This document shows positions 6,001-9,000 of a DNA stretch of 64,000 bases, piece by piece. How positions within the stretch are numbered: position 1 is the stretch's first letter; each line of letters starts with the position of its first letter. Source of the stretch: Escherichia coli. Lineage in GTDB: Bacteria > Pseudomonadota > Gammaproteobacteria > Enterobacterales > Enterobacteriaceae. The stretch lies in the NCBI RefSeq assembly GCF_044324875.1, contig NZ_CP172186.1; one strand, 5' to 3'. Position numbers: made by a program.

Positions 6001-9000
6001 CCATATTCAACGGCTTCTTTAAGGAGTTCATTTTCCATCGTTTTTTTGCCGAGCAGGCGCTGGAGTTCTTTAATCTGCTTCATGGCAGCAGCAAGTTCAG
6101 AGGCAGGAACGACCTGTTCTCCGGCGGCCACAGCAGTAAGACTTCCCTCCTGGTATTGCTTGCGCCAGAGAAATAGCTGGCTGGCTGCCACACCGTGTTG
6201 CCGGGCTACAAGGGAGACCGTCATTCCCGGTTCAAAACTCTGCTGAACAATAGCGATCTTTTCCTGTGTAGTACGCCGTCTGCGTTTCTCCGGTCCTAAG
6301 ACATCAATCATCTGCTCTCCAATGACTAGTCTAAAAACTAGTATTAAGACTATCACTTATTTAAGTGATATTGGTTGTCTGGAGATTCAGGGGGCCAGTC
6401 TAGCAGATTATGGTGCGCAGTTATACAATAGCAGTAATGAGGAGTCTACTATTTCTCTTGTTATGCCAGATGCAATTGAATGGAACGGAAAGAATACGCC
6501 AAGACGGCAATACATGATAAAATATATTGCCGTATTTAAATATTAAAATTTATTTTTGTAGATCATCTGAATTTTCGGTGACCTTCAAGTTTTATATCGT
6601 TCATTTTATCCAGAGACTCACGTAATGATTCTATATTCCCGTCCTCAACTTTCTTTTTTGCAATATTGATTTCATGTTGTAGTTTTTTTAACTCTTCCTT
6701 ATAATTATCTACAGAAACTTTATCATTAACATCTATCTTTTCAGGAATAATATTCATAGAAGAATCTACAGATTTATCCATCATTTCAAGAGCATTTAAT
6801 AGTGATGATTTATCATTGGAAGATTGTAGAATACTCATACTTTTGGCAAGAGACTGCATGTTTTTATCCAGGCCGGAAGCCAAAGATACGTTGCTGAGAG
6901 ATAAAAAAATAGCTAGTACAGCACCTGAGAAAAATACCTTTTGTTTTATCATTAATATATTCCTGTTCAAAGTTGATTATAGTTATGTCAATTTAAGTTT
7001 ATTATTATGATTTTTTATTTTTGTACTATGAATCTCCTGTATGCTTATATGTGCAGAAAATCTCATTTTATCAAGAAGAATATCAAATTTTCTCCGATAC
7101 TTCTACATACTCCATCATTCATGCTCCTTTTATCCGTGCACCGTAAAACCCCGTCCTTCAGCGGGGATATAAGGCGCTGTTTTCCACCTAACCAGGTGTC
7201 TGCTGCTATTCAATGTATTGGCGGATGACGGATGCCGCCCGTTGAAGCAGGAACCCTCGTCCTTAGGGCGTGGAGGATGTCAAAATGAAAACTTGTGGTA
7301 TGAATCAATCCATTCATCATCCTTTCGGATCATTGCATTCAGTATAACGCTGGAAGAGCCTGGCAATATCACTGTATTGATGGTATTACGCCATGAATTG
7401 CTTATTTCTTAAATACGACATGCACCACAGACAGGCTTTTCCTATACCATCGGAACGAGCGGCAAGAAATAACTTGGTGGCGTGTTTATGTTCGCGCATT
7501 GGCTTTTTAAGCAATTTACCTCTGTTCAATAACGGCAATGCCAGATGATGTGGAATATAACCAATACCGACGTTTTGTTCTATTAAGCTGATTGCCATGG
7601 CGAAGTCAGGAACAAAAATAGGTTTTTGTCCTTCCAACAACCAGGCTTGCATTGGGGGGAAGTTAACGGAGGTATCCCGGATACAAACCGCAGGATAATG
7701 ACGCAATTCACTGTTTTCTAATGGATTCCGCTTCACTGCCAGTGGATGAAGTGGGCTGACGACAAAATCCCATTCTATTTGTCCGACCGGTTCGCTAATG
7801 ATGCCTTCACTGCTTGGTACTGCATGAGGAGCACCGTAGACCAGATCAGCACGTTTACTGTACAGCGCATCCCAGCAGCCGTTGTATACTTCAATATCTA
7901 CCGTCAGTGTTGTTGATGTGAATTGCCGTTCAAAATCTTGAATAAATGACACCAGAAAATCACCAGGTATAATATTGTTCACCGCAATTGTCAGTTCACG
8001 CTCAATACCATCGTGAATCAGCACTGTGTTGCGCTTTAATGCATCCAGATCGCGGAGAATATTTTTGCTATGTTCGATGAAGTAACTCCCCGCCGGAGAT
8101 AATTCAATATATCGTCCCTTACGAATGAACAGTTCAACGCCCAGGGTTTCTTCCGCTTTCTTCAGGGTGTAACTGATAGTAGAAGGGACTTTATTTAACT
8201 GTTCGGCTGCGGTGGTGATGTTCTGGTGTCTGGCGACCAGATGAATAATTCGAATCGTTTCGTCTGAGATGAACATAAGGCTCCCTGGTCAGTGGTAAAG
8301 TGGCTGAATCTCTCCAGATTCAGCCGTAATCATTGCCTGAGTATACCCAGGAATTAGCGGTGTTGACTTGCCCGACTGAGAATCGCATACGCGATACATG
8401 CCACCAGAATGGAGTCAACTGAAGGGATCGTCGTCAGGGTGAATAAGCCTTTTACGGTCATAAAGCCAACCGCTGTGCCTGTGATCCATGCAGCGAATGT
8501 CAGTACTTTAACCTGTGACTCCTGAGTTAACACCGACTCTTGATAGCCATTACGGCGATAAAGGAAAAAGTCAGCGATATAAATTCCGGCAACTGGGGGA
8601 GTCGCGATACCCAGGAACAGCAGAAACGGAATAAACCACGCCATAATATCCATACTGCCTACGATGGCGGAAAGGATACCCAGCGCAACGGTAATCTGCC
8701 ATTTGGGAAAGCGGCTAAGCAGTGTGGAAACTACCAACGTCCCCTGGAACATATTGCCCGCATTACCGGTGACGCAGGCGAATATCAGCAACAGTGCTGC
8801 AGGCATAACCGCACCGAATACTGCCATAGCATTCAGTAAAGAGCCCTGGCCGCTAATGGCACTCGGCGTTGCACCCGCCCAGTATAGCAGAGGGTAGGCA
8901 ACCAGAAACGTCATACCTGCGGCAATCAGAGCATGTTTTCGGTTATGTACAAAACTACCGAAGTCGGGAAGTGTAGCAACCAGCACAATAATAGTGCCAA

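Follow-up and report, generated by a model that had tools for sequence, protein, structure and literature searches.

The 64,000-nucleotide stretch of Escherichia coli DNA analysed here (the window; RefSeq assembly GCF_044324875.1, contig NZ_CP172186.1) carries, beside a catabolic gene module, a small gene for a protein that resembles cytochrome b562, and it raises the question of what such a protein would do when encoded on a plasmid. A first-pass annotation made from the DNA sequence had described a small AT-rich gene at 6563-6970 for a secreted relative of the E. coli cytochrome CybC. On balance, we lean towards the view that the gene encodes a Sec-exported paralogue of the b562 family that acts as a periplasmic electron carrier in peroxide defence. 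What was observed here is membership of the family, a predicted fold, conserved haem ligands and an export signal, together with purifying selection on the gene and the gene order around its relatives. The identification itself is already public, as RefSeq names the gene cytochrome b562, and the sequence is without anomaly. Only the grouping with plasmid b562 genes linked to katP, the gene of a periplasmic catalase-peroxidase, and the resulting lead on the role of b562 proteins are mildly new.

The open reading frame (ORF) occupies 6563..6970 on the minus strand and has 135 codons, the first of which is TTG. The span proposed earlier holds for the ORF; its start does not. An ATG at 6952 lies six codons inside the TTG-started frame with AGGA ahead of it (6964-6961), the same ATG is the RefSeq start on identical plasmids (129-amino-acid product), and the TTG at 6970 is not kept in alleles of other loci (it is TCG in locus L004). 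The true start is therefore the ATG, and the coding sequence (CDS) is 6563..6952 on the minus strand, with 129 amino acids plus stop and the precursor MIKQK...GHRKFR; it is supported by the ORF list, a RefSeq allele, a Pfam match and the substitution pattern described below. The near-identical allele in the same place on pAPEC-O2-211A-ColV (L001) is annotated in RefSeq as cytochrome b562 (WP_000595317.1), a name given to the gene on at least 85 plasmids of incompatibility group F (IncF), and the CDS under the match is annotated intact, with this name, in the plasmid and genome records listed. The description as AT-rich is borne out, with a GC content of 31% in the CDS vs 50% in the adjacent module and 51% in the window.

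Sequence comparison and structure prediction agree on the kind of protein encoded. The N-terminus has a basic n-region (MIKQK), a hydrophobic core and a predicted cleavage site SLA|SG, and it aligns with the signal peptide and cleavage site of CybC, in line with the signal peptide proposed at first reading. The part coding for this peptide, residues 1-25, lies at 6878..6952 (minus strand). A Sec-type signal peptide of this form predicts a periplasmic location. The predicted mature protein has 104 amino acids, a mass of 11.9 kDa and an isoelectric point (pI) of 6.1, and the candidate Met ligand is again its residue 7, as in CybC. The Pfam family PF07361 (Cytochrom_B562) is matched at 55.8 bits vs a gathering score of 30 (E=7.9e-15) over profile positions 2-102 of 102. 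In a phmmer search of the PDB, every match is a soluble cytochrome b562, the best with E=7e-4 and an alignment that spans the protein from the signal peptide to the C-terminal R. An AlphaFold2 model built from an alignment of 24 sequences has helices at residues 24-44, 48-65, 78-103 and 107-128, with a predicted local distance difference test (pLDDT) score above 90 in the mature domain vs below 50 for residues 1-23. When this model was compared with the PDB by Foldseek, the top 50 matches were all b562 or its engineered or fusion derivatives; 256b was matched with a template-modelling score (TMt) of 0.91 and a root-mean-square deviation of 1.4 A over 104 columns, and the solved b562 structures overall with scores of 0.9 and deviations of 1.3-1.5 A. 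The four-helix-bundle resemblance to CybC claimed at first reading was thus well founded.

In cytochrome b562, the haem is ligated axially by Met7 and His102 (PDB 256B). The alignment that bears on them joins the query and E. coli CybC with three close alleles and with 19 cluster representatives picked up by an exhaustive search. That search was needed to reach the wider family, as a word-indexed protein search reached only relatives of at least 67% identity, and the family is small: 30 of 1.84 billion cluster representatives gave E below 1e-3. Only three columns are invariant among the 24 sequences: M32 (Met7 in mature CybC), P70 (Pro45) and H125 (His102). The codon of Met32 (mature Met7) lies at 6857..6859 and that of His125 (CAC; mature His100) at 6578..6580, both on the minus strand, and the alignment with CybC finds in place the two candidate ligands that the first-pass annotation had listed. 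L35, M58 and Y84, matching CybC Leu10, Met33 and Phe61, are nearly invariant, and positions 98, 105 and 106 retain basic or aromatic character. CybC Tyr101 is replaced by Gly and Phe65 by Leu; Gly at 101 is common across the family. Because the Pfam match, the predicted fold and the conserved ligands agree, we consider it very probable that the product is a periplasmic, haem-binding four-helix-bundle cytochrome of the b562 family.

Within this family, the protein is best described as a paralogue of CybC rather than its orthologue, since it scores 66.3 bits against the NCBIfam equivalog NF011632 (CybC), whose cut-off is 130, and is only 19% identical to CybC. This refines the earlier description, as does the identity of the closest relatives, which are b562 genes directly after katP on plasmids of the pO157 type and go beyond what had been claimed. 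A tblastn search of 72,556 plasmids gave 581 records, 87 of them at 60% identity or more and 494 at ~41-46%; the latter group is the pO157-type gene of E. coli O157:H7, found downstream of katP (L008). We refer to these low-GC genes of plasmids and islands informally as the katP-associated plasmid b562 subfamily, or L7018-like proteins, a grouping defined in this analysis. Pairwise identity of the window protein is 41-49% to the proteins of pO157, L002, L010 and a Salmonella plasmid, vs 19-25% to CybC, and the window protein and all subfamily members lack two residues of the CybC loop that joins helices 2 and 3. By sequence it is therefore closer to the L7018-type proteins than to CybC. By location it differs from most of them, in that no signal-peptide-bearing catalase-peroxidase gene stands immediately upstream. 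On an F-like plasmid contig (L017 4001-4384, Logan SRR30858635), we also observed a solo b562 gene of another lineage (P0062), 27% identical to the window protein; it lies in the leading region of the plasmid, between an SLT-domain gene beside traM and a hok-like/psiA-psiB cluster. F-type plasmids thus carry at least three different b562 lineages.

The pairing of b562 genes with exported catalase-peroxidases is the observation that bears most directly on function. Most sampled subfamily members lie 38-46 nt downstream of signal-peptide-bearing katP-type genes. For example, the gene on pO157 follows katP by 46 nt, and diverged katP-b562 pairs are also found in L002 and L010. Two more distant b562 lineages (L011 and L015, ~23-25% identical to the query) also stand directly behind a peroxidase gene, of 730-738 amino acids. 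Peroxidase and b562 genes are separated by 28-53 nt, and an N-terminal signal peptide is present in each of the five peroxidases. In the PLSDB collection, katP is present in 486 plasmids and the pO157-type b562 in 478. The literature describes the same pairing in Yersinia: katY-cybC-cybB forms a single transcript in Y. pestis (PMC2231364), and hydrogen peroxide (H2O2) induces cybB and cybC along with the catalase-peroxidase gene katG in Y. pseudotuberculosis (bioRxiv 10.64898/2026.03.04.709318). The L7018 protein has been seen by proteomics in enterohaemorrhagic E. coli, where it was 6.3-fold more abundant in infected piglets (PMC3686733). In our searches of the literature on L7018, on ColV together with b562 and on b562 function, plasmid b562 proteins appear in proteomic mentions only, and no paper addresses the ColV copy or gives a function to any plasmid b562, which agrees with the earlier remark that plasmid and island copies have no established function. 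A solo subfamily gene on the Salmonella IncF plasmid pCFSAN060804 (L009) lies ~1.7 kb from sodC, which encodes a periplasmic Cu,Zn superoxide dismutase (4812-5318 and 6986-7375 for the pair); this is another association with periplasmic oxidative-stress genes.

Because b562 genes are found repeatedly behind exported catalase-peroxidases, and because the genes are co-induced by H2O2 in Yersinia, we favour a role in periplasmic peroxide defence; that the window protein is an electron carrier in this process we put forward tentatively, by analogy with these systems. In such a scheme, the ~11.9-kDa b-type cytochrome would be exported through Sec to the periplasm and would hold one non-covalent haem b between Met32 of the first helix and His125 at the end of the fourth. 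There it may act as a small soluble one-electron carrier in the defence against peroxide and oxidative stress, for example as an electron donor to a periplasmic peroxidase or as an acceptor of electrons from the membrane cytochrome b561 (CybB). On the ColV-type plasmid, the gene would have become separated from any katP, as a cassette with an IS2 remnant on one side and a 136-bp repeat on the other. A broader version of this proposal, which we regard as rather doubtful, is that the whole plasmid subfamily serves as a dedicated periplasmic redox or haem-loading partner of exported catalase-peroxidases (KatP, KatY) and forms, with CybB, an electron path from quinol to H2O2. The solo copy on ColV would in that case work with chromosomal components and make avian pathogenic and extra-intestinal pathogenic E. 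coli more resistant to the oxidative burst of the host.

Cytochrome b562 is among the most used model and fusion proteins in biochemistry, and the partner reading, if true, would give this long-used model protein a physiological function. At least five of the sequence lineages examined have b562 directly behind signal-peptide catalase-peroxidase genes. Together with the three different solo b562 lineages on F-type plasmids, this recurrent pairing provides a testable lead, namely that b562 may be a partner in periplasmic peroxide defence. If the lead is true, the gene on the ColV plasmid could make a small accessory contribution to the fitness or virulence of these pathogens.

Several points weigh against a peroxide-defence role. 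Most katP-b562 plasmids are clonal derivatives of pO157, so that the 478 and 486 PLSDB records are not independent. The link to katP is also not obligatory, as solo genes include the window copy, L009 and the island alleles L004, L006 and L016. A tblastn search of the 64-kb window with a KatP-like protein found no katP-like gene (best E = 0.37); any peroxidase partner would thus be chromosomal or absent. Further, candidate OxyR and Fur boxes in the 196-nt 5' flank of the gene do not exceed chance: the best Fur and OxyR matches, 13/19 and 13/20, are reached by 16% and 22% of shuffled sequences. Haem binding in the subfamily, the redox partners and the physiological role are what we infer from sequence and gene order. 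To our knowledge, the physiological function of canonical E. coli CybC itself is not established, and literature searches returned nothing on it. Finally, in iron-starved Y. pestis CybC is up and KatY is down, which fits poorly with strict co-function (PMC2835676).

The immediate surroundings of the gene suggest that it moves independently of its neighbours. Between the window and diverged alleles of 77-80% DNA identity (L004 and L007, from unrelated contexts), similarity spans only ~105 nt upstream, the CDS and ~60 nt downstream. The conserved 5' flank is 6953..7061 (minus strand), with similarity ending at ~7061. It includes the AGGA, as ribosome-binding site, and putative promoter elements: a perfect TTGACA (6991-6986) and a perfect TATAAT (6981-6976) with a spacing of only 4 nt, and at 7032-7004 a second, weaker pair that resembles a promoter. 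No canonical sigma-70 promoter is assigned with any certainty, as the two perfect hexamers stand only 4 nt from each other and a scan gives only sites of 9/12, at the rate expected by chance. About 30 nt past the stop codon, a hairpin with a 12-bp stem (6504..6533, minus strand; -16.2 kcal/mol, z = -3.0) is kept in L004 and L007, with a compensatory change from T:A to A:T in the stem of L004. A terminator scan flags a site at 6509-6497 that overlaps it, and the hairpin is probably a terminator or the 3' end of the mRNA. Judged from these comparisons, the gene travels as a self-contained cassette of ~550 bp with its own 5' flank, CDS and 3' hairpin. In the mature region, the ratio of nonsynonymous to synonymous substitution rates (dN/dS, Nei-Gojobori) is 0.23-0.25 against the L004 and L007 alleles, at dS 0.3-0.6, and 0.14-0.28 across the subfamily, values which imply that the protein is under purifying selection.

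In the window, the cassette sits in an AT-rich island of 746 bp and 30.7% GC (6403..7148, no strand assigned), bounded on one side by the left end of a truncated IS2 (~6402; orfA at 5946-6356) and on the other by the left copy of a 136-bp direct repeat (7149-7284). The gene is just outside this repeat, as the first-pass annotation had placed it, and its upstream neighbours are the repeat and then a LysR gene. An ORF at 4852-5988 joins the N-terminal part of IS2 OrfB in frame to the C-terminal half of the ATPase of an ATP-binding cassette (ABC) transporter, recognisable by its LSGGE signature and Walker B motif; the fusion at 4852-6402 is the scar of a deletion mediated by the insertion sequence (IS). 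A second IS2 end, in inverted orientation, was observed at 39530-39637. Pseudoknots of the ALIL type (Rfam RF01497, a programmed-frameshift element of the IS3 family) mark IS3-family copies at 17315-17431 (minus), 34625-34741 (minus) and 47489-47575 (plus); the first two lie in identical repeated IS segments, D1 and D2 (16457-16942 vs 31060-31253 and 33953-34252).

The right copy of the 136-bp repeat is at 15835-15970 and is 98% identical to the left one. Together, the copies bracket an 8.2-kb module on the same strand as the b562 gene. Its genes encode a LysR regulator, a cytosine/purine-type permease, an AH_C protein, carbamate kinase, AllG, AllF, AllH and a hydrolase of the isochorismatase family. 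The repeats contain two small hairpins with GC stems and similar loops, have no Rfam match and carry no RefSeq annotation. We rejected a widespread miniature inverted-repeat transposable element, an IS end and a known RNA as explanations of the repeat, which is unannotated, lacks an Rfam match and occurs in only 138 of the 5426 complete E. coli genomes. The b562 segment occurs in the same number of these genomes, with 128 plasmid and 20 chromosomal sites. In PLSDB, it is found with at least 99% identity in 85 plasmids, all conjugative and IncF, including pAPEC-O2-211A-ColV; the plasmid location given at first reading is thereby upheld, and a ColV-type plasmid origin of the gene is supported by the sequence comparison. 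A chromosomal island (L016) has IS2, the b562 gene, one 136-bp copy and IS1, and no module, an arrangement that would fit a module gained or lost when the two repeats recombine. Alleles of 71-82% identity occur in other contexts, among them a Klebsiella contig and an island that carries an integrase, PerC and SSB. The apparent alternative junction between gene and module in L003 (CADHQA010000109.1) was set aside, as the letters NN stand exactly at the junction, around 9889-9892, and its apparent 175-bp deletion is probably a scaffolding artefact; the b562 allele of L003 is a mosaic, identical in its 5' part to the window and in its 3' part to the island allele L004. On pAPEC-O2-211A-ColV, we also observed a second, paralogous cluster (L001 5579-14012) in a Tn3-flanked segment ~7 kb from the b562 gene, with a carbamate kinase-family protein, DUF1116 (AllG-like), FdrA (AllF-like), DUF2877 (AllH-like), an ankyrin-repeat protein and its own LysR regulator. 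One virulence plasmid thus holds two modules that resemble oxamate carbamoyltransferase systems.

These surroundings bear on two explanations in which the cytochrome has little to do with peroxide. It could be a remnant of a broken katP-b562 operon, functionally irrelevant and kept through its linkage to IS2 and the neighbouring module: its flank is IS debris, with the truncated IS2 fused to a truncated ATPase gene, the window is free of katP, and the very low GC content suggests, from composition, silencing by H-NS. Drift of this kind is hard to reconcile with dN/dS far below one at appreciable dS, an intact CDS in the records listed, a conserved 5' flank and a 3' hairpin with a compensatory change. 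A remnant of katP was also looked for and rejected: the search with the KatP-like protein found none in the window, upstream of the gene or elsewhere, and none stands beside the Salmonella plasmid copy L009. In addition, alleles of the gene are found in at least three unrelated contexts. As selection on the protein and the conserved flanks both disfavour it, we consider pure hitch-hiking unlikely. The other explanation, that the protein serves the adjacent LysR-permease-AllFGH-carbamate kinase-isochorismatase module as an accessory redox component, draws on the position of the gene, which directly follows the module's LysR gene downstream and shares its strand, and on the equal count of 138 genomes for the b562 segment and the repeat. 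The gene is nevertheless outside the repeats that bracket the module, differs sharply from it in base composition, and occurs with the 136-bp sequence and without the module in L016 and as diverged alleles elsewhere. It does not depend on the module. In addition, the module enzymes are cytoplasmic, and none of their Pfam families (CoA ligase-like, kinase, hydrolase) provides a periplasmic redox step. We regard a module role as the least credible of the readings considered.

Two further explanations concern the haem itself. The synteny with exported catalase-peroxidases would fit equally well a periplasmic haem chaperone or buffer. Such a protein would take up haem b in a reversible manner, and would either supply it to exported haem enzymes or sequester free haem for the iron and haem economy of the plasmid. 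KatP-type peroxidases must acquire their haem after Sec export, the haem of b562 is non-covalent and the apo-protein is stable, and an apo structure (8den) is among the fold matches. Y. pestis CybC is listed as Fur-linked and rises 4.7-fold under iron starvation (PMC2835676), and ColV plasmids are rich in iron-uptake systems, for example the iron ABC transporter near the gene in L001. Ligation of the haem by both Met and His is, on the other hand, typical of electron carriers, no Fur box stands out in the 5' flank, and there is no direct evidence of haem transfer by any b562; we take a chaperone to be rather unlikely. That the b562 fold was kept for another periplasmic role while haem binding was lost could be argued from the low identity to CybC, the score below the equivalog cut-off and the changes at Tyr101 and Phe65. 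Yet neither the axial ligands nor Pro45 vary in the alignment, Leu10, Met33 and an aromatic residue at 61 are conserved, positions 98, 105 and 106 keep their basic or aromatic character, and the Gly at 101 is shared widely in the family, and we therefore judge loss of haem binding very improbable. An exported electron carrier in peroxide defence remains the reading that we prefer.

Among known systems, the katY-cybC-cybB operon of Yersinia offers the parallel in gene arrangement. There too, a b562 gene is paired with a catalase-peroxidase gene, in one transcript and with induction by H2O2 (PMC2231364; bioRxiv 10.64898/2026.03.04.709318). That operon is chromosomal and includes the membrane cytochrome b561, whereas the window gene is accompanied by neither cybB nor a kat gene. 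The L7018 protein of pO157 (WP_001172748.1) and its relatives in L002 and L010 belong to the same subfamily, and share with the window protein 41-49% identity, their length, the short loop, a low GC content and residence on IncF plasmids. L7018 differs in that its gene, 46 nt after katP, is probably co-transcribed with it, whereas the window gene is without a nearby katP and has its own conserved 5' flank; the mature L7018 protein is also more acidic (pI 4.8 vs 6.1). E. coli CybC (PDB 256B) is further from the window protein than the L7018 group, with 19% identity, Tyr at the position of Gly in the window protein, two more residues in the loop that joins helices 2 and 3, and a chromosomal cybC locus vs a plasmid or island location with 31% GC. 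It is nonetheless the same kind of protein: in both, a Sec signal peptide is cut, or predicted to be cut, before the same N-terminal motif L-D/E-x-N-M, and a four-helix bundle of ~12 kDa without Cys retains the equivalents of Met7 and His102, together with Pro45, Leu10 and Met33.

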